Shown here one piece after another: positions 6,400 to 57,574 of a DNA stretch of 58,596 nt. Both the position numbers and the translations under genes were made by a program. Each line of letters starts with the position of its first letter. Position 1 is the stretch's first letter. The stretch is from a virus. Its lineage: Duplodnaviria > Caudoviricetes. The stretch is taken from IMG/VR virus record IMGVR_UViG_3300012942_000006, positions 1 through 58,596 of that record, one strand, 5' to 3'. The notes beneath the pieces are model-generated. The model saw only the letters and a program-made list of their open reading frames with translations. It was not told where the DNA came from and made no database searches.

Positions 6400-6452
6400 G
6401 CCCTCAGCCAGCAATCGGTCCTAGCGCTCAGCGAGCGCCTGCGTAACGAGAG

Positions 6453-6490
6453 AAGGGGCTGGGGTGGGTGAAATCCTACCCTGGCCCCTT
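6453..6490 (+). terminator. stem-loop terminator
   Basis: AAGGGGCTGGGGTGGG-loop-CCTACCCTGGCCCCTT; G-U pairs favour the + strand. Confidence 0.65.
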
Positions 6491-6564
6491 CCGACGCTTT
6501 ACACGGGCGCGTAGCGTCTTCGGACAGAACAGCCGACCGGCTGCGCCCGGACCACTAGCGGTAA

Positions 6565-9938: not shown

Positions 9939-10058
9939 GGAGAGGATCCTCGGCGGTCATCGACGAGATGGCACGTCGGTATCCCCGCGCAATCCCAATA
10001 ACCGGTAAGATAGCCTCAGGCGGAAGGACCGCCAGAGTAAGCAAGGGAAGGACCCATT

Positions 10059-13005: not shown

Positions 13006-13789
13006 CGTACGCAAGGCGCTCACCCAGTCCGGATCGGACGACAATGTCCGCGTCACAGTCAACGTGTGGGCTAGCGACACGCCTGAGCTGAGAGCGATCC
13101 TCACCAAGCACTTTCCGGCATGGGCTGAGTTGTTCGCTCGTAAGAACAGCGAGTACGGCTCCGGCAGCGCATTCGATCTAGGGGAGCGCGGTCAGTTCTC
13201 AGACATCTACCGCAAGATCATCAAGCTGAAGCGCGCCATGTGGGACGAAGACGAATCGGTCCTCACGACCGAGGGCGTCGACGAGATCATCATGGACCTG
13301 ATCGGACACTGCTTCCTTACGCTCGAGATGCGGGCTCGCAAGGACGCCGAGAAGACCAACAGCTTCGCGGTCAACAGCGTATCTATCAGTCCCGCCATGA
13401 TGACGCAGGACGACTTCGAGGCGATGGTCCAGAAGGCGGGGATGTTCGTCATCCCCAATGAGGATCGGGGTCCTAAGAAGGTCGACAGCGAACCCAAGAC
13501 TCAGACCGCAGACTCCGACGCTCTCAACTGGACTGCCCCAGACGGGCGACGATTCAGCGTCGGCGATAACGTTCGACTCAAGCAGCACCTGGGCAAGGGA
13601 CCAGTCTATGTTCTGCGCTCAATCGATCCCTATGATGCACGCGGGATGATCTTTGAGCTGAACAATCCGATGTGGACTACTGAACAGAACATCTTCGTAC
13701 ATCCTACATGGGTATACAAGGACGGCGATAAGTCACCGGAGGAGCTGGCTCTCGACTCTCGACCGATCGCGGACAATCCGCAAGCCTGA
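12995..13789 (+). CDS. DUF1599/nucleotide-modification-associated domain 1 protein with C-terminal extension
   Basis: ELFARKNSEYG...IYRKIIKL...EIIMDLIGH signature. Confidence 0.65.
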   Translation: MNIDVRKALTQSGSDDNVRVTVNVWASDTPELRAILTKHFPAWAELFARKNSEYGSGSAFDLGERGQFSDIYRKIIKLKRAMWDEDESVLTTEGVDEIIMDLIGHCFLTLEMRARKDAEKTNSFAVNSVSISPAMMTQDDFEAMVQKAGMFVIPNEDRGPKKVDSEPKTQTADSDALNWTAPDGRRFSVGDNVRLKQHLGKGPVYVLRSIDPYDARGMIFELNNPMWTTEQNIFVHPTWVYKDGDKSPEELALDSRPIADNPQA

Positions 13790-14712
13790 TGCATTACGTC
13801 TCGTTGCACAGCCATTCCACGTACTCATACATGGACGGCTACGGTCTACCAGAGCAGCATGTTGAGCGAGTAGCTGAGCTGGGCATGAAGGCGCTCGCCC
13901 TCACTGAGCACGGCAATGTGTCATCGCACGTGAAGCTCGAGAAGGCTGCAGAGAAGCACGGTATCAAGCCGATCTACGGACTGGAGGCTTATACGGCTCC
14001 GGCTGACATGCGCGAGACTCGTAACATGCGCAAGTGGCATCAGACGATTCTGGCCATGAATCAGAATGGATATCAGAATCTCAATAAGATGGTTACGAGG
14101 AGCTGGAATGATAACTTCTACCGCTGGCCGACGGTTCTTGGCAAAGACGTCCAGGAGCTCAATAAGGATCTTATCTTCACGTCGGGCTGCGCCGATTCGC
14201 TCCTGGCGTGCACGCTCCTTGGCGGCAAGGGTATCGAAGTTGGAGACTACGACGCAGCCGTCAAGGTGCTCAAAAAGTTCAAACGTATGCTGGGCGATCG
14301 CTACTATCTAGAGGTCCAGCGCTTCCCAGGACTAGAGCGTACCCGCATTCTCAACAGGCAGTACGCTGCGTGGAGCAAGGAGTTCGGGATCCCTCTAGTT
14401 GCTACATCTGATGTGCACTATCCGAAGCCGGAGCACAATGAGATGCAGAAGATCCTTCATGCCGCTGGCCGAAACACTGGCACGGTCGCAGCAGCAGAGG
14501 CCGAGTGGGAATACAACATCCTCTTGACCTATCCGGAGTCAGACGACCAGGTTCTATTCGATCTTATGGAGACTGGGCTCACTCGTGGCGAGGCCCAGGC
14601 CGCAATCATCAACACAGAGGAGATTGCAGAGCGATGCACAGTGGTACTTCCAAAGATGGACCGCATCCGCTATCCGGGGACGAAGAGAGACCTACTCCCG
14701 TGGACAGACTGA
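13789..14712 (+). CDS. dnaE: DNA polymerase III alpha, PHP domain (N-terminal part of split DnaE)
   Basis: LHSHSTYSYMDG, ALTEHG, KPIYGLEAY, VATSDVHY. Confidence 0.92.
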   Translation: MHYVSLHSHSTYSYMDGYGLPEQHVERVAELGMKALALTEHGNVSSHVKLEKAAEKHGIKPIYGLEAYTAPADMRETRNMRKWHQTILAMNQNGYQNLNKMVTRSWNDNFYRWPTVLGKDVQELNKDLIFTSGCADSLLACTLLGGKGIEVGDYDAAVKVLKKFKRMLGDRYYLEVQRFPGLERTRILNRQYAAWSKEFGIPLVATSDVHYPKPEHNEMQKILHAAGRNTGTVAAAEAEWEYNILLTYPESDDQVLFDLMETGLTRGEAQAAIINTEEIAERCTVVLPKMDRIRYPGTKRDLLPWTD

Positions 14713-14825
14713 GAGACTGCTACTACTGCGACAGTGACACGCATGTCTGCGGCGGCTGCGGAAAGCCGGTTCCGCATGGTCCGAACGCATGCCTGCGGGC
14801 GCTCAATGGACTGGAGTGCAAATGA
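14700..14825 (+). CDS. 41-aa Cys-rich protein between the two dnaE parts
   Basis: MDRLRDCYYCDSDTHVCGGCGKPVPHGPNAC...; its stop overlaps the ATG at 14822. Confidence 0.55.
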   Translation: MDRLRDCYYCDSDTHVCGGCGKPVPHGPNACLRALNGLECK

Positions 14826-17149
14826 AAGAAGATCTAGACGAGTCGGTCGATACCGAGACAATTCTTCGGCACTGGCTGAACGAGGGCTGGAAGTTCCGCG
14901 GATTCGACAAGCTCTCGCGCGCGAAGCGCAAGGAGTACATCGCTCGGGTCAACTACGAGTTCGAGATGATGAAGATGAAGGACTTCCTCGACTACTTCGC
15001 AGTGCTGTCGGACGTTGTTCGAGAGGCGAAGCGCCGAGAGGTCGCCGTCGGTCCTGCTCGTGGATCCGCAGCCGCATCGCTGTGCTGCTACCTGTGGCGA
15101 ATCACAGAGGTCAATCCGATGGACTATCCGAACATGCTGTTCGAGCGGTTCATCGATCCGAATCGCATGGACGTACCAGACATCGACCTAGACTTTGAGG
15201 ACGATCGGCGCGACGTAGTCCGACAGATCATGATCGAGAAGTACGGAGCCGACCGCGTCGGCAACATCGGAACCTTCACTCGATATCGAGGCAAGAATGC
15301 GATCGACGACGTGGCAAGGGTGTACTCGTTGCCGAAGGGCGAGATCGATGCCGCGAAGGAGTTTCTGGTCGAGCGTTCCGGAGGCGACAGCCGATTCGAT
15401 GCATCGATCATGGATACTGTCGAAATGTTCCCGCAGGTCAAGGAGGTCTTCGATAAGTATCCACAGCTGTATAAGTCGATCGAGCTGGAGGGCAACTATA
15501 AAGCATTCGGAGTTCACGCCGCAGGCCTAGTCATAGGCAACGACGATCTCTCTCGTTACGTGGCCACCTACGGTCGCGAGATAGGGTCAGGAGCTAAGAA
15601 GAAGACCGTCCAGGTACTCTCGGTAGACAAGTACGATGGCGAGCATCTCGGTCTCATGAAGCTGGACGCTCTAGGGCTCCAGACGATGGGCATGATCCGC
15701 ATCGCCCTCGATATGCTAGGGATGACCCTGAAGGATCTCTATGCCATCCCGATGGACGACCCAGAGACCTTGAGGGCGTTCTACAACGCCGACGTGATCG
15801 GTATATTCCAGTTCGAAGGCCGGACGATGAAAATGGTGACTGAGGAGATGAAGCCCAAGACCTTCATGGATCTCGCCGCCATCAATGCCCTGTCGCGACC
15901 AGGACCGCTGCACTCTGGCAGCACTGGCGATTATCTGGCCATCCGGCACGGTCGACAGAAGCGAGTTGATCTGCATCCGATCGTAGCGAACATCTGCGCT
16001 AGTACCGAGGGCCAGATCATCTATCAGGAGCAGATCCTACAGATCACGCGAGATGTCGGAAAGTTCCCATGGACGCATGCCTCGAAGATTCGCTCAATTA
16101 TCTCGCATAAGGAGGGTGAGTCGGCGTTCAACGCGATGTATCCCGACTTTGTGAAAGGTGCAGCAGAGTCTGGCATCGAAGAGCCGTTGGCCAGAGAGAT
16201 ATGGAAGCGCATGGCAACTGCTGGAACATACGCGTTCAACATCGCCCACTGCATCTCCTACTCGATGCTTGGTTTCTGGGCTATGTGGCTCAAGGTGCAC
16301 CATCCCATTGAGTTCTACGCAGCGCAGCTTCAGAAGACGCCGCACGACGACAAGGAGAAGGACGTCCTGCTGATGCGCGACATGATGAATCCGAAGTTCG
16401 GTCGTAACCTTAAAGTACTTCCTCCGAAGGCGAGCAGATCTGGATCCACTTGGAAGCCTGTCAAGAAGAGAATAACAGTCCATAATCATGGACGAAAGAT
16501 CCGAAGGTCTGTAGACGTTGGTGTCCGCGCTGGATTTCTGCAGATCCCAGGGATCGGCGAGATTACCGCCCACAAGATCGAAGAGTTCATAGACGAGAAT
16601 GGGGGCATATCAGACTGGTCAGATCTTCAGTCGAACAAGGGCGGGATCAAGGGTCTCGGACCAAAGACGATTGAGAAGATTCGAGAGTTTGCTAAAGACC
16701 CAGATCCGTTCGGAATCTACAAGCTGGCCAACGAGATCAAGGCGATACGCGAGGCCATTCGGTCGGGTGATCTGCCGGCTCTGCCGATGCCAACAGCCGT
16801 CGCCGAGGATGTCCCATACGAGGCCGTGAAGTGGTCTGGAATCGTCCTCTGCCGGCTCCGCAGCCGCAACCTGAAGGATCTGTTCGAGGACTACAGATCA
16901 AGAACGGGCGAGGAGCTAGATCCAGAGTCTGTCAAGGATCCGCATCTGAAGGACTCGATGTCTCTGTACATGGAGGACGCATCAGGCCTCTTGACTGCGA
17001 AGATCAGTCGCCAGCTGTACCCCAAGGTCAAGGCCGACATCTGGGGAGCAAAGCTCGGCCACGACTATGTACTTGCTCGCGTCTTCACATATCCATTCTT
17101 GGGGAAGACGGTTCACATCGAGAAGATGTGGGTCGTAGATCCAGATTGA
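14822..17149 (+). CDS. dnaE: DNA polymerase III alpha, catalytic part
   Basis: GPARGSAAAS, PDIDLD, GVHAAG, KLDALGL, IFQFE, RPGP, YQEQI, YAFNIAH; GGAG SD before ATG 14822. Confidence 0.95.
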   Translation: MKEDLDESVDTETILRHWLNEGWKFRGFDKLSRAKRKEYIARVNYEFEMMKMKDFLDYFAVLSDVVREAKRREVAVGPARGSAAASLCCYLWRITEVNPMDYPNMLFERFIDPNRMDVPDIDLDFEDDRRDVVRQIMIEKYGADRVGNIGTFTRYRGKNAIDDVARVYSLPKGEIDAAKEFLVERSGGDSRFDASIMDTVEMFPQVKEVFDKYPQLYKSIELEGNYKAFGVHAAGLVIGNDDLSRYVATYGREIGSGAKKKTVQVLSVDKYDGEHLGLMKLDALGLQTMGMIRIALDMLGMTLKDLYAIPMDDPETLRAFYNADVIGIFQFEGRTMKMVTEEMKPKTFMDLAAINALSRPGPLHSGSTGDYLAIRHGRQKRVDLHPIVANICASTEGQIIYQEQILQITRDVGKFPWTHASKIRSIISHKEGESAFNAMYPDFVKGAAESGIEEPLAREIWKRMATAGTYAFNIAHCISYSMLGFWAMWLKVHHPIEFYAAQLQKTPHDDKEKDVLLMRDMMNPKFGRNLKVLPPKASRSGSTWKPVKKRITVHNHGRKIRRSVDVGVRAGFLQIPGIGEITAHKIEEFIDENGGISDWSDLQSNKGGIKGLGPKTIEKIREFAKDPDPFGIYKLANEIKAIREAIRSGDLPALPMPTAVAEDVPYEAVKWSGIVLCRLRSRNLKDLFEDYRSRTGEELDPESVKDPHLKDSMSLYMEDASGLLTAKISRQLYPKVKADIWGAKLGHDYVLARVFTYPFLGKTVHIEKMWVVDPD

Positions 17150-17252: not shown

Positions 17253-18422
17253 GTGAACATCAAGAGGACGGTCGCGCTGTTGGGCGTGACCGGAGTGGCA
17301 GTCGCAGGGGCGGTGATCGGACTCGCAGCACCAGCTTCGGCTCACACGCCGTCGGTGAGTGCGACATGTTCGACGCTTTCTGTCGATCTCGAGAGCTACG
17401 CCGATCAGATACCAGCTCAGGATGAGGTTTCGCACGTCGTGCACCATCACGACCTCGTGACGCCGGAAGTTCCCGCTGTGCCGGAGGTGTCTCATACTGA
17501 GTATCTCTACAAGCAGCTGATCACCGGCAAGGAGAAGTGGCTCGACTCGATCACCTGGAATCCTGGCCTCGGATGGTACTACTCAGGACAGTCGAAGGTC
17601 GTCGTCGACCAGGAGGCCGTCGATGCGGTCCCCGCAGCCTACAACGACTGGGATGAGACCATCGTCGACTCTCCTGCGCAGGATGCGAAGTCCAACCACA
17701 TCGTGGTGACTGTCGACGGCTCAACTGTCGAGGACTCGGACTTCGGGTCATCGTTCGCGAAGGACTACGATCTGGGCGACAAGTACGTCGAGCACTCCTG
17801 GTCGGTCGATGTGACTGCCTGGGACAGCAGCGACTACAACCTCAGCCAGTCCGGAACGACCACGGCCTGCGATCTGCCTGTGGTGGACGCTGTGCCGGGT
17901 GCGACTATCGCACATGAGTGCGGATCCGCCGACATCTCGCTGACCAATGTTCCGGCGTTCGAGACTGTCAACAAGACCGCGAGCTATGTGATCTACGTCG
18001 ACGGGAAGTTCGAGGACGCAGTCTCAGTGCAGTCGGGAGCGACTGAAACGCGGCATCTCGACTTCGCAGAGGACAGCGGAGACCATCACATCGTCGTCAG
18101 GACAGGACCTGCGTTCGGAGACCAGCTGGTATCCGAGGCGACAGTCGGAAGCGACTGCGATGAGAACACCACGCCTCCGACAGATGACGGCGGCGAGACG
18201 ACTCCTCCTGTCGTGACGCCTCCGGCAGACAACATCCCCGCCCCAGCGGAAGCTGCTCCTGTGGCGGTCCAGAGCGCCGATAGTGGAGAGGACGCGACGA
18301 CACTCGCGGACACCGGCTCCAACTACGGCGAATCCCTGATCTACGCAGTAGGAGGTATCCTTCTTGGCGGTATCGTTCTGACTGCGGTCGGACTCGGTAC
18401 CCGCAGGGCGCGCCGACAGTAG
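17253..18422 (+). CDS. secreted, sortase-anchored cell-surface protein
   Basis: Signal peptide ending APASA; Pro/Thr-rich stalk; LADTG + transmembrane helix + RRARRQ. Confidence 0.85.
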   Translation: MNIKRTVALLGVTGVAVAGAVIGLAAPASAHTPSVSATCSTLSVDLESYADQIPAQDEVSHVVHHHDLVTPEVPAVPEVSHTEYLYKQLITGKEKWLDSITWNPGLGWYYSGQSKVVVDQEAVDAVPAAYNDWDETIVDSPAQDAKSNHIVVTVDGSTVEDSDFGSSFAKDYDLGDKYVEHSWSVDVTAWDSSDYNLSQSGTTTACDLPVVDAVPGATIAHECGSADISLTNVPAFETVNKTASYVIYVDGKFEDAVSVQSGATETRHLDFAEDSGDHHIVVRTGPAFGDQLVSEATVGSDCDENTTPPTDDGGETTPPVVTPPADNIPAPAEAAPVAVQSADSGEDATTLADTGSNYGESLIYAVGGILLGGIVLTAVGLGTRRARRQ

Positions 18423-18430
18423 CAGGGATT

Positions 18431-18504
18431 GGGAGTGGCGCTGACATCCGACAGCGCAGGTGCAGAGAACCAAGGCTCTGCGAGGTTCGACTCCTCCGCT
18501 CCCA
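18431..18504 (+). ncRNA. tRNA-like RNA (non-canonical)
   Basis: Acceptor GGGAGTG(G)/(C)CGCTCCC-A; T arm GAGG-TTCGACT-CCTC; two further stems; 74 nt. Confidence 0.65.
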
Positions 18505-18620: not shown

Positions 18621-18655
18621 GCCCCGGTCCGACAAACCCCCAGTCGGGCCGGGGC
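18621..18655 (+). terminator. 13-bp stem-loop with C-rich loop
   Basis: GCCCCGGTCCGAC-AAACCCCCA-GTCGGGCCGGGGC. Confidence 0.5.
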
Positions 18656-39936: not shown

Positions 39937-41154
39937 ATGGAAAACTTCAAGACCATCTCCCAGCTCGCTCGCGCCCAGCGCCCGATCCTCGGTTACAAGA
40001 TGCTCGACCTCGAGTCGTTCGGATTCGTGACCGATCTGCACGGTGCAGACTCCCACGGCTACAACCAGCAGTCCGACGTTCTGGTCACGCAGTCGATCGA
40101 CGGCGTGGACTACAACCGGATGTGGGCGGAGTTCCAGGCAACCCTCGCGCTGCAGAATGCCGAGCGCACCACCATCGTTCAGTTCCTGACCTTCCCGGTT
40201 CAGCAGCCGTTCGATCAGGTGACTCAGCTCAGCGGCTCGAAGTTCGAGCGCCAGACCGAGTACGGCGAGCCTCGCGGCATTCGGCAGCAGCCGACGTCGT
40301 TCTGGCTGGGTTACGACCTCGTCGACTACGACATCGCGGTTCGCTACACCTGGAAGTACCTCGCCAACGCGACGGCTGCTCAGGTGGAAGCGCTCCACAG
40401 CTCCGTGATCGAGGCCGACAACCAGAACCTGTTCGAGGCCGTGATGCGGGCTCTCTACGCCGGCAACACGAACCGTACCACGAACATCAACGAGCAGCCC
40501 TACACGGTCTACGGCCTGTACAATGGAGACGGCACCGTTCCTCCGACGTACAAGTCGAACACGTTCGACGGTTCGCACACGCACTACACGATCAGTGGCG
40601 CGGCGACCATCGACAGCGGAGACCTGGACGCCCTGATGCAGCAGCTCACTGAGCACGGCTACAGCCGTGTCAACGGCGTGCAGCAGGTCATCGCGGTCAA
40701 CAGTCGCGAGGGCAAGGTCATCCGGTCGTTCAGGATCGCCGACGGCGATACCTACGACTTCATCCCGAGTGCAGCTGAGGCAACGGCTCTCATCCTCGAT
40801 CCCGGTCAGACGGTGTCGGGCGGTCAGCCAGCCTCGTTCTACAAGGGGCTGAACGTCATCGGATCGTACGGCGAGGCGCTGATCATCGAAGATGACAACT
40901 TCCCGCCGTCGTACGTGACGATCATCGGCACCGGCGGGCGTGACGCCCTCCAGAACCCGGTGGGTCTCCGTGAGCCGCAGAACGCGTCTCTGCGCGGTCT
41001 GAAGCTCGTCAAGGGTCCGGACAACGACTATCCGCTGACCGACTCGTTCTACATCCACTCCTTCGGTACGGGCGTGCGTCAGCGCGGTGGCTCGGCCGTG
41101 ATGCAGATCAAGGCATCCGGCTCGTACACTCCGCCGACGCAGTACCTGTACTGA
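39937..41154 (+). CDS. major capsid protein
   Basis: 405 aa, strong codon bias, canonical position, followed by a terminator. Confidence 0.85.
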   Translation: MENFKTISQLARAQRPILGYKMLDLESFGFVTDLHGADSHGYNQQSDVLVTQSIDGVDYNRMWAEFQATLALQNAERTTIVQFLTFPVQQPFDQVTQLSGSKFERQTEYGEPRGIRQQPTSFWLGYDLVDYDIAVRYTWKYLANATAAQVEALHSSVIEADNQNLFEAVMRALYAGNTNRTTNINEQPYTVYGLYNGDGTVPPTYKSNTFDGSHTHYTISGAATIDSGDLDALMQQLTEHGYSRVNGVQQVIAVNSREGKVIRSFRIADGDTYDFIPSAAEATALILDPGQTVSGGQPASFYKGLNVIGSYGEALIIEDDNFPPSYVTIIGTGGRDALQNPVGLREPQNASLRGLKLVKGPDNDYPLTDSFYIHSFGTGVRQRGGSAVMQIKASGSYTPPTQYLY

Positions 41155-41162
41155 GTCAGCTG

Positions 41163-41196
41163 AGAGGGGCAGGGTTCCTTGGTGTCCTGCCCCTCT
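41163..41196 (+). terminator. stem-loop terminator
   Basis: AGAGGGGCAGG...CCTGCCCCTCT. Confidence 0.65.
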
Positions 41197-41220
41197 CTCA
41201 ACCCAAGGAAAGAAGGCATC

Positions 41221-41559: not shown

Positions 41560-41627
41560 ACTTTCTCTCGGCAGAGACCCCGGTGGAAATGTCTGCCGGG
41601 GTCTCTTCACATCTAGGAGGAACTGCA

Positions 41628-57515: not shown

Positions 57516-57539
57516 GAGGTGATCCTGCTCTAGCGTGGG

Positions 57540-57574
57540 GACCCCAGCATCAGATGAAGGGTGCTGGGGTCTTC
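57540..57574 (+). terminator. stem-loop terminator ending the late region
   Basis: GACCCCAGCAT...GTGCTGGGGTC-TTCT. Confidence 0.6.

Follow-up and report, generated by a model that had tools for sequence, protein, structure and literature searches.

The 58,596-bp window analysed here is the whole of virus record IMGVR_UViG_3300012942_000006, one complete record with direct terminal repeats. At positions 18431-18504 of its plus strand lies a 74-nt sequence with the outline of a tRNA, 8 nt behind the TAG stop codon (18420-18422) of a gene at 17253-18422. This locus raises the question of what a tRNA-shaped cloverleaf without an anticodon is doing at the end of a phage gene. The first-pass annotation had taken it for a tRNA mimic or decoy. 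Comparison with related phages places the weight on one arm of the cloverleaf: the middle arm, a hairpin whose loop carries the core ACCAAGG, is very probably, together with that loop, the conserved functional unit. We tentatively prefer the reading, at slightly less than an even chance, that the whole element is a non-decoding, tRNA-derived frame around a conserved hairpin of a regulatory or terminator type.

The minimum free energy and centroid structures of the 74 nt are the same four-way junction, with an energy of -36.8 kcal/mol (z -3.48; 1 of 200 shuffles folded as well). The junction is retained in a fold of 280 nt of context, with one added pair, U18430-A18504. The minus strand gives a poorer fold (z -1.32), matched by 21 of 200 shuffles, since its counterpart of the plus-strand G.U pair is C.A. 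The outer, acceptor-like stem has 7 bp between residues 18431-18437 and 18497-18503, one of them G.U, and is followed by A18504; CCA is not encoded. The D-like arm (18438-18457) consists of a 6-bp stem (18438-18443 with 18452-18457) and an 8-nt loop, ACAUCCGA, with no GG. A 4-nt linker, AGGU, separates it from the middle arm (18462-18481), which has a 6-bp stem, 7 bp with a U.G pair, and an 8-nt loop AACCAAGG at 18468-18475 that contains no U. The T-like arm (18482-18496), a 4-bp stem with the canonical loop UUCGACU, follows after 0 nt, which leaves no variable region. All 23-24 pairs of the cloverleaf are intact and only one is G.U.

The geometry depends on where the element is taken to begin. 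Within 18431-18504 it is 7/4, and over 18430-18504 it is 8/4: the stack of the outer stem on the T stem in the 280-nt context fold (8 + 4 bp, 12 bp in all) needs the pair U18430-A18504, and this pair leaves A18504 no free role as a discriminator. The 8/4 geometry given by the first-pass annotation holds in the longer form only. Its 8-bp acceptor, GGGAGUGG/CCGCUCCC, was obtained by counting one C twice, and the D-like stem that it drew as CGCUG/CAGCG (5 bp) is present with 6 bp. Its account of the remaining parts agrees with the fold: a 6-bp middle stem, an 8-nt loop without U33, neither variable loop nor CCA, and the loop UUCGACU on a T stem of 4 bp.

ARAGORN found no tRNA in the window and Rfam no match at its gathering score; the general tRNA model (RF00005) had no match on the genome at E <= 10. 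The best weak match was tRNA-Sec (RF01852), with 25.9 bits against a gathering score of 47 and an E-value of 0.0049 over 401 nt or 0.72 over the whole window, and the element has neither the long variable arm nor the UCA of tRNA-Sec. The T arm, GAGG-UUCGACU-CCUC, is the canonical part, having the T-loop consensus and the closing G-C on a stem of 4 rather than 5 bp. The other features of a tRNA are missing or displaced. The middle arm carries an 8-nt loop without U33 on a 6-bp stem, where a canonical anticodon arm has a 7-nt loop on a 5-bp stem; the 4-nt linker sits on the other side of the middle arm from a canonical variable region; and G18 and G19 of the D loop are absent. The element at 18431-18504 cannot decode and is not a working tRNA. 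The view of a non-canonical, tRNA-shaped fold unable to decode, with no score of an ordinary tRNA, is therefore supported. Three open reading frames cross the element on the minus strand, none with a PHROG or Pfam match.

It is important to compare this structure with the corresponding region of related phages. Genes encoding a protein with an LAxTG motif, downstream of the polymerase gene in related loci, were listed without regard to structure and gave seven distinct lineages. In five of them (the window, L014, L002, which is of the Krampus type, L005 and L023) a hairpin with ACCAAGG in its loop is present, the structure lying 6-21 nt after the LAxTG stop codon, and the other two (L009 and L012) have different hairpins. 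In phage Sparcetus a hairpin of this kind stands behind a small gene, itself preceded by a glycosyltransferase gene. We define the family as hairpins of at least 6 bp on the coding strand, after the last stop codon of the polymerase block, with the loop core ACCAAGG. The window hairpin at 18462-18481 belongs to it, and the members beyond the window are L014, G001 with Krampus and MortySmith, G002, L023 and Sparcetus. The hairpin is thus found in five lineages besides the window, immediately behind the block of genes that follows the DnaE-like polymerase.

In this family the relatives have stems of 12-16 bp, and the window has one of 6-7 bp. At the seven levels next to the loop, all 42 stem cells of the six lineages pair, with 2-4 pair types per level; the identity of the stem arms is 0.32, and the loop core ACCAAGG is identical in 6/6. 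When the hairpins of the relatives were folded (five), none of 200 shuffles folded as well (z -4.2 to -6.0). A U-rich tail resembling that of an intrinsic terminator follows the hairpin in Krampus/MortySmith and in Sparcetus. Since the same loop stands on plain hairpins in five relatives, the conserved unit is the hairpin with its loop and not the tRNA shape. The middle arm had been described as a degenerate anticodon arm; its loop is instead the conserved loop of a hairpin family that lacks D and T arms in these five lineages. The covariation that was expected in relatives is found for the hairpin stem and, in L014, for the outer stem, and for neither the D-like nor the T-like arm.

The closest comparison is with L014, where a 16-bp hairpin carries the identical loop AACCAAGG. 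The outer 7 bp of this hairpin, GGGCUGG/CCAGCCC followed by AC, correspond to GGGAGUG/CGCUCCC followed by AC in the window, with changes on both sides at three pairs. The window differs by two extra side hairpins between the outer stem and the conserved hairpin. A search for the whole element by exact 21-mer gave no matches in viral contigs; blastn against phages gave none either, and blastn-short on the loci found no carrier. A single-sequence covariance model run on 17 sources matched only the element itself, the weak matches in L014 and L011 being plain hairpins. No whole element was seen in the polymerase-based loci from viral and metagenome contigs, of which one 84% relative (L020) stops within the polymerase gene, and a search with the downstream gene as query gave no carrier.

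Two other functions of the loop were considered and rejected. Quadruplet decoding by the 8-nt loop is contradicted by the missing U33 and by the presence of the same loop on non-tRNA hairpins, and the fit of the loop to a Shine-Dalgarno mimic or an anti-Shine-Dalgarno sequence is limited to AAGG/CCUU.

Whole genomes were also scanned for strong hairpins whose loop contains CCAAGG or CCTTGG. Besides the first hairpin, the scan located a single one in the window, a partner hairpin at 41162-41197 on the plus strand. The partner has a 14-bp stem and a loop, UCCUUGGU, that is the reverse complement of ACCAAGGA, and it lies 8 nt past the stop codon of the major capsid gene (39937-41154, plus strand, phrog_3990). 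The CCUUGGU of this capsid-side loop is the reverse complement of the first loop, and the complementarity of AACCAAGG with UCCUUGGU amounts to 7 bp here and to 7-10 nt in relatives. Hairpins with unrelated stems and CCUUGG(UGG) loops stand at the same place in G001/Krampus/MortySmith, G002, G003, G004, Sparcetus and the Arthrobacter phage Wollypog, and G005 has the loop UCUUGG there, so that, of 15 lineages examined, 8 have the capsid-side hairpin. In G006, where the capsid gene was not located, none was seen. Five relatives from Gordonia, Mycobacterium and Curtobacterium have no room for one (a gap of at most 25 nt), and Konstantine has a different hairpin after its capsid gene.

Both hairpins occur in all four genomes in which both sites can be inspected, namely the window, G001, G002 and Sparcetus; L014 and L023 are short contigs. 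When all hairpins with stems of at least 11 bp are ranked, the loop behind the capsid gene forms the strongest duplex with the first loop in each of three genomes, with energies of -9.7 kcal/mol in the window (rank 1 of 27), -13.1 in G001 (1 of 29) and -15.6 in G002 (1 of 21). The loops have remained constant while the stems were replaced entirely, and this shows that the loops themselves are under selection. The flanks common to the two cassettes, UAACAAGCC before the hairpin and CAACCC after it, suggest that the cassettes are paralogues with an inverted loop.

In four of the eight lineages with a capsid-side hairpin (the window, 41162-41215, G001, G003 and Sparcetus L044), a direct copy of CCAAGGA or CACCAAGG follows 3-6 nt after it and is complementary to 8-9 nt of that hairpin's own loop. 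A pseudoknot between the capsid-side loop and the downstream CCAAGGA copy was rejected, since 2-5 nt cannot span a stem of 12-14 bp and four lineages do not have the copy. Co-evolution of the whole hairpins within a genome was also rejected as too weak, as local alignments of site 1 to the reverse complement of site 2 scored 19, 26 and 20 within genomes against 12-20 between genomes.

These observations allow us to propose how the element could work. In the preferred reading the conserved hairpin would occupy the place of the anticodon arm within a frame descended from a tRNA. That the frame itself is functional is possible but on balance doubtful. If it is, the frame with its 12-bp stack and canonical T loop would act, by analogy, as a tRNA scaffold that offers a handle for RNase P, 3' trimming and resistance to nucleases. 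RNase P would be expected to cut at 18430/18431, 8 nt past the stop codon. The outcome would be either a defined 3' end of the mRNA or a stable RNA of about 75 nt displaying the ACCAAGG loop. The most likely action of the displayed loop would then be to base-pair with the loop of the hairpin behind the major capsid gene, over 7 nt here, though overall we rate such loop-loop pairing as rather unlikely. The pairing would couple the early, replication transcript to the termination, read-through or stability of the capsid transcript. The plain hairpins of the relatives would do likewise as mRNA 3' ends. The full chain, a natural tRNA scaffold from which tRNA-processing enzymes release an RNA of about 75 nt whose loop kisses the terminator hairpin behind the capsid gene and so sets the read-through or stability of the late message, appears quite unlikely.

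The closest analogue of the proposed frame is the engineered tRNA scaffold, in which a foreign hairpin replaces the anticodon stem-loop and which, as described in PMC3753655, is recognised by factors of the cell, precisely processed and protected in bacteria. Both have acceptor, T and D arms around a hairpin. Unlike the man-made scaffolds, the frame of the window is natural and degenerate, with its 4-bp T stem, its D loop without GG and its linker between the D and middle arms, and its processing is only predicted. Natural tRNA-like substrates of RNase P, as listed in PMC4919922, include mascRNA at the 3' end of MALAT1, the t-elements of plant mitochondria and, from phages P1 and P7, the c4 antisense RNA precursor. 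Here too a tRNA-like fold adjoins or lies within a longer transcript, and in those systems it is a cutting signal and not a decoder. In the modelled context fold the window element has the coaxial acceptor/T stack of about 12 bp (8 + 4) and the T loop of such processing elements. However, it has no sequence or Rfam match to any of them, its host is actinobacterial, and its cleavage is only proposed.

Other known systems share single features with the locus. The allo-tRNAs described in PMC5389517 are active in translation; their acceptor branch is split 8/4 or 9/3, and they carry a long V-arm, a long D stem closed by a tetraloop and a normal anticodon loop. The element has long D and anticodon-like stems as well, and it would share the 12-bp branch, split 8/4, only if U18430-A18504 is counted (it is 7/4 within the 74 nt), but it has no V-arm, an 8-nt D loop on a 6-bp stem and no anticodon loop. 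At the T7 terminator T-phi, after capsid gene 10, a trans-acting RNA pairs with the RNA of the terminator hairpin and changes the expression of downstream genes; the acting RNAs are tiny abortive transcripts, which anneal to the 5' half of the hairpin stem (PMC2952870). The contact suggested here would instead be made loop to loop between two structured hairpins. A kissing antisense pair calls for two stable hairpins whose loops are complementary over about 6-8 nt, and the two sites, with 7 bp, agree with it in this respect. Intrinsic terminators of actinobacteria and their phages are also GC-rich hairpins a few nucleotides past a stop codon, and the U-rich tails of Krampus/MortySmith and Sparcetus fit this pattern. 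The differences are the conserved loops of 8-12 nt, the complete turnover of the stems and, in the window, the branched hairpin without a U-tract.

Several observations weigh against the preferred account, some against the frame and others against the pairing. The D-like and T-like arms are present in no relative examined, and the frame is a single sequence without covariation. With a D loop lacking GG and a T stem of 4 bp, a tRNA elbow might fail to form. Neither 18504 nor 18655 is followed by a U-tract, and a terminator scan of the window gave no plus-strand site. Covariation from loop to loop cannot be shown, because the 7-nt core is invariant, and the complementarity of the loops may have been inherited from a duplicated cassette with an inverted loop. 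G003, G004 and G005 have the capsid-side loop without any ACCAAGG hairpin, and therefore that loop has a role that does not need one. Taken as a whole, the 76 nt around the capsid-side hairpin fold no better than shuffled sequence (z -1.25). The cloverleaf topology is also common by chance. Gapless cloverleaves, defined by a closing stem of at least 7 bp around three hairpins of at least 4 bp with few junction bases, were counted in the genome and in 11 dinucleotide shuffles of it. Those with at least 24 bp and at most 4 junction nt were found at five loci in the real genome and at 0-8 loci per shuffle. The intactness of all stems is therefore not evidence in this GC-rich genome, and the step from intact stems to a mimic or decoy, taken by the first-pass annotation, is not supported.

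This control bears directly on the view that the element has no relation to tRNA at all, being a terminator-type hairpin whose long stem happens to hold two side hairpins and whose T-loop match is accidental. Besides the counts of cloverleaves, that view can draw on the Rfam E-value of 0.72 for the whole window and on the motif GGTTCRANTCC, which occurs once in the window (0.21 expected) and at least once in 20 of 100 shuffles. However, a TTCRANY loop in the third arm, the right one and abutting the 3' strand of the closing stem, was found at a single real locus, this element in two registers, and in 0 of 11 shuffles. It is the canonical T loop alone that marks a tRNA origin, and the topology does not. 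In an alignment with four tRNA or tRNA-like genes of related phages there are 19 invariant columns, which include A14, U17, A21, A23 and G24 of the D arm and the T loop, and the element is one base short in the 3' strand of the T stem. Moreover, two of five related complete or near-complete genomes have two tRNA-model matches each, all downstream of the polymerase, and two further records have none. An accidental likeness is improbable on these grounds, and the frame likely, if not certainly, derives from a tRNA gene such as those that stand in this region in relatives. Such descent is also compatible with an inert remnant, an old tRNA gene that lost its anticodon arm to the hairpin, or fused with it, so that the hairpin alone works. 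The tRNA genes of the relatives, two with the anticodon loop replaced by inserts of 25 and 45 nt, the alignment of the element to them in the D and T arms, the shortened T stem and the lost GG of the D loop all agree with a remnant, and five lineages manage without the frame. Against it, every helix still closes in spite of several insertions and deletions relative to tRNA geometry, the 8/4 form retains a 12-bp stack, and the 23-24 pairs are intact, a point that the shuffle control weakens. We regard an inert remnant as unlikely.

The two remaining explanations concern the loop. The sequence CACCAAGG at the tip of an inverted repeat might act as a DNA-level element, read in either orientation by a protein on the duplex, or on a single-stranded or cruciform hairpin during replication. 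It would then stand once behind the polymerase block and once, in inverted form, behind the capsid gene. The mutual reverse complementarity of the two loops in the four genomes with both sites visible, the extra direct copies after the capsid-side hairpin in half of its eight lineages and the nearby replication genes would all suit such an element. It is nevertheless about as improbable as the accidental likeness, since both hairpins lie 6-21 nt after plus-strand stop codons, some with U-rich tails, in the manner of RNA 3'-end structures, and the G.U pairs point to the strand that is transcribed. The analysis gave no candidate for a sequence-specific binding protein, and the gene after the capsid-side hairpin has no family match. 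That the element serves as a decoy, titrating an anticodon nuclease or some other defence aimed at tRNAs, is in turn very improbable. Phages employ tRNAs against such defences, and the tRNA-like shape, canonical T loop and 12-bp stack would be appropriate to a decoy. Known anticodon nucleases, however, read the anticodon loop, and the loop here has neither U33 nor an anticodon and stands on plain hairpins in five lineages, while the tRNA frame is found in no relative examined. There are also no clear tRNA-repair genes; the only gene resembling one matches polynucleotide kinase weakly in PHROG and nothing in Pfam, and its homologue in Sparcetus is annotated as a phosphatase. The link to anticodon nucleases that the first-pass annotation had drawn thus finds no specific support.

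One candidate source of the frame was tried and rejected. The pattern ACCAAGG-N8-GGTTCGANTCC is found at 14 viral loci, seven of them within tRNA genes called by ARAGORN (six tRNA-Arg and one tRNA-Pro), and in the six tRNA-Arg genes ACCAAGG is the 3' strand of the anticodon stem. One more match lies within a 126-nt Rfam tRNA match of L060 (31.1 bits). Descent from tRNA-Arg(ACG) was dismissed as the similarity is near random beyond the fixed search pattern. Among the 80 records listed with that anticodon arm, most are betaproteobacterial, two are actinobacterial and none is from Microbacterium.

Some tRNA-like genes met in these comparisons have features of their own. The tRNA-model matches at L005 8492-8576 and L009 10489-10598 (46.3 and 53.0 bits) have normal acceptor, D and T arms; in one, 25 nt (for 13) replace the anticodon region, and in the other that region contains an insert of 45 nt (for 7). 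A ribosome-binding site follows directly behind each match. Frames of tRNA that do not decode may be habitual in this phage group. The same two loci have tRNA genes with the anticodon UAA (L005 10101-10174 and L009 12167-12239) of only 73-74 nt, without the long variable arm of bacterial tRNA-Leu; UUA is a rare leucine codon in high-GC hosts. In unrelated IMG/VR phages, long tRNA-like genes missed by ARAGORN occur at L060 424-549 (minus strand), L059 near 1984 and L064 near 8234. They have a GGUG...CACC stem and AAGG just ahead of the T arm, and in the 126-nt gene of L060, which matches RF00005, 57 nt replace 18 model positions.

The window represents the entire genome of a Krampusvirus-like phage. 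Its polymerase shares 67-69% identity with the polymerases of the genus Krampusvirus (cluster EF), whose members, Krampus and Sparcetus among them, infect Microbacterium, and its recognisable genes are all on the plus strand. They encode a helicase, an exonuclease, a Sak4-like annealing protein, a primase/helicase, the DnaE-like polymerase and ThyX, and also the portal, protease, scaffold, major capsid, tape measure and minor tail proteins. The polymerase occupies two open reading frames, 13789-14712 and 14789-17149, and the same split is reported for cluster EF phages in PMC7302621. The stretch is present in a single DNA sequencing run, a soil metagenome that may be the sample it came from, and a search of sequencing runs found no RNA run containing it.

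The gene that precedes the cloverleaf (17253-18422, plus strand) has no PHROG or Pfam family match. Its product is a predicted secreted surface protein with a sortase-type sorting signal, a C-terminal LADTG followed by a hydrophobic stretch and RRARRQ, and LAxTG genes are found at the equivalent place in relatives. The homologues in L002, L005, L009, L012, L014 and L023 have a signal peptide and a sortase-type LAxTG and lie directly after the polymerase. Phages with this gene have no recognised integrase in that region, and the cluster is described as lytic. Downstream of the cloverleaf, a second strong hairpin of 13 bp (18621-18655, plus strand) precedes the ribosome-binding site and ATG (18675) of the next gene. 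Its 3' flank, CAACCCUGG, after which the ribosome-binding site and ATG follow, is the same as the flank directly after the plain hairpin of L014.

Other very strong intergenic hairpins of 15-17 bp in the window, at 6452-6491, 41573-41606 and 57537-57574, have short, non-conserved loops and are probably ordinary terminators. The motif GGGAAGGACCC is repeated on the plus strand of the window at 10044, 17196, 21014, 21538 and 57647 and resembles the start-associated sequence reported for cluster EF phages (PMC7302621). With three mismatches allowed it is not above shuffles (19 against 14.8 expected).

The locus carries a general caution, namely that in a genome rich in GC the intactness of all stems counts for little as evidence. 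Should the frame prove functional, nature would have its own version of the engineered tRNA scaffold, and the element would be a case, in a bacterial virus, of a tRNA-like fold used for RNA processing and not for decoding. The Krampusvirus-like phages have two hairpins, one after the polymerase block and one after the capsid gene, with conserved loops that are reverse complements of each other and with stems that have turned over fully. The description of cluster EF in PMC7302621, in its available sections, reports SAS and ESAS motifs and not these hairpins, and literature searches were not aimed at the motif. The pair of hairpins offers a simple and testable handle on the control of early and late genes in the cultivable phages of Microbacterium foliorum.

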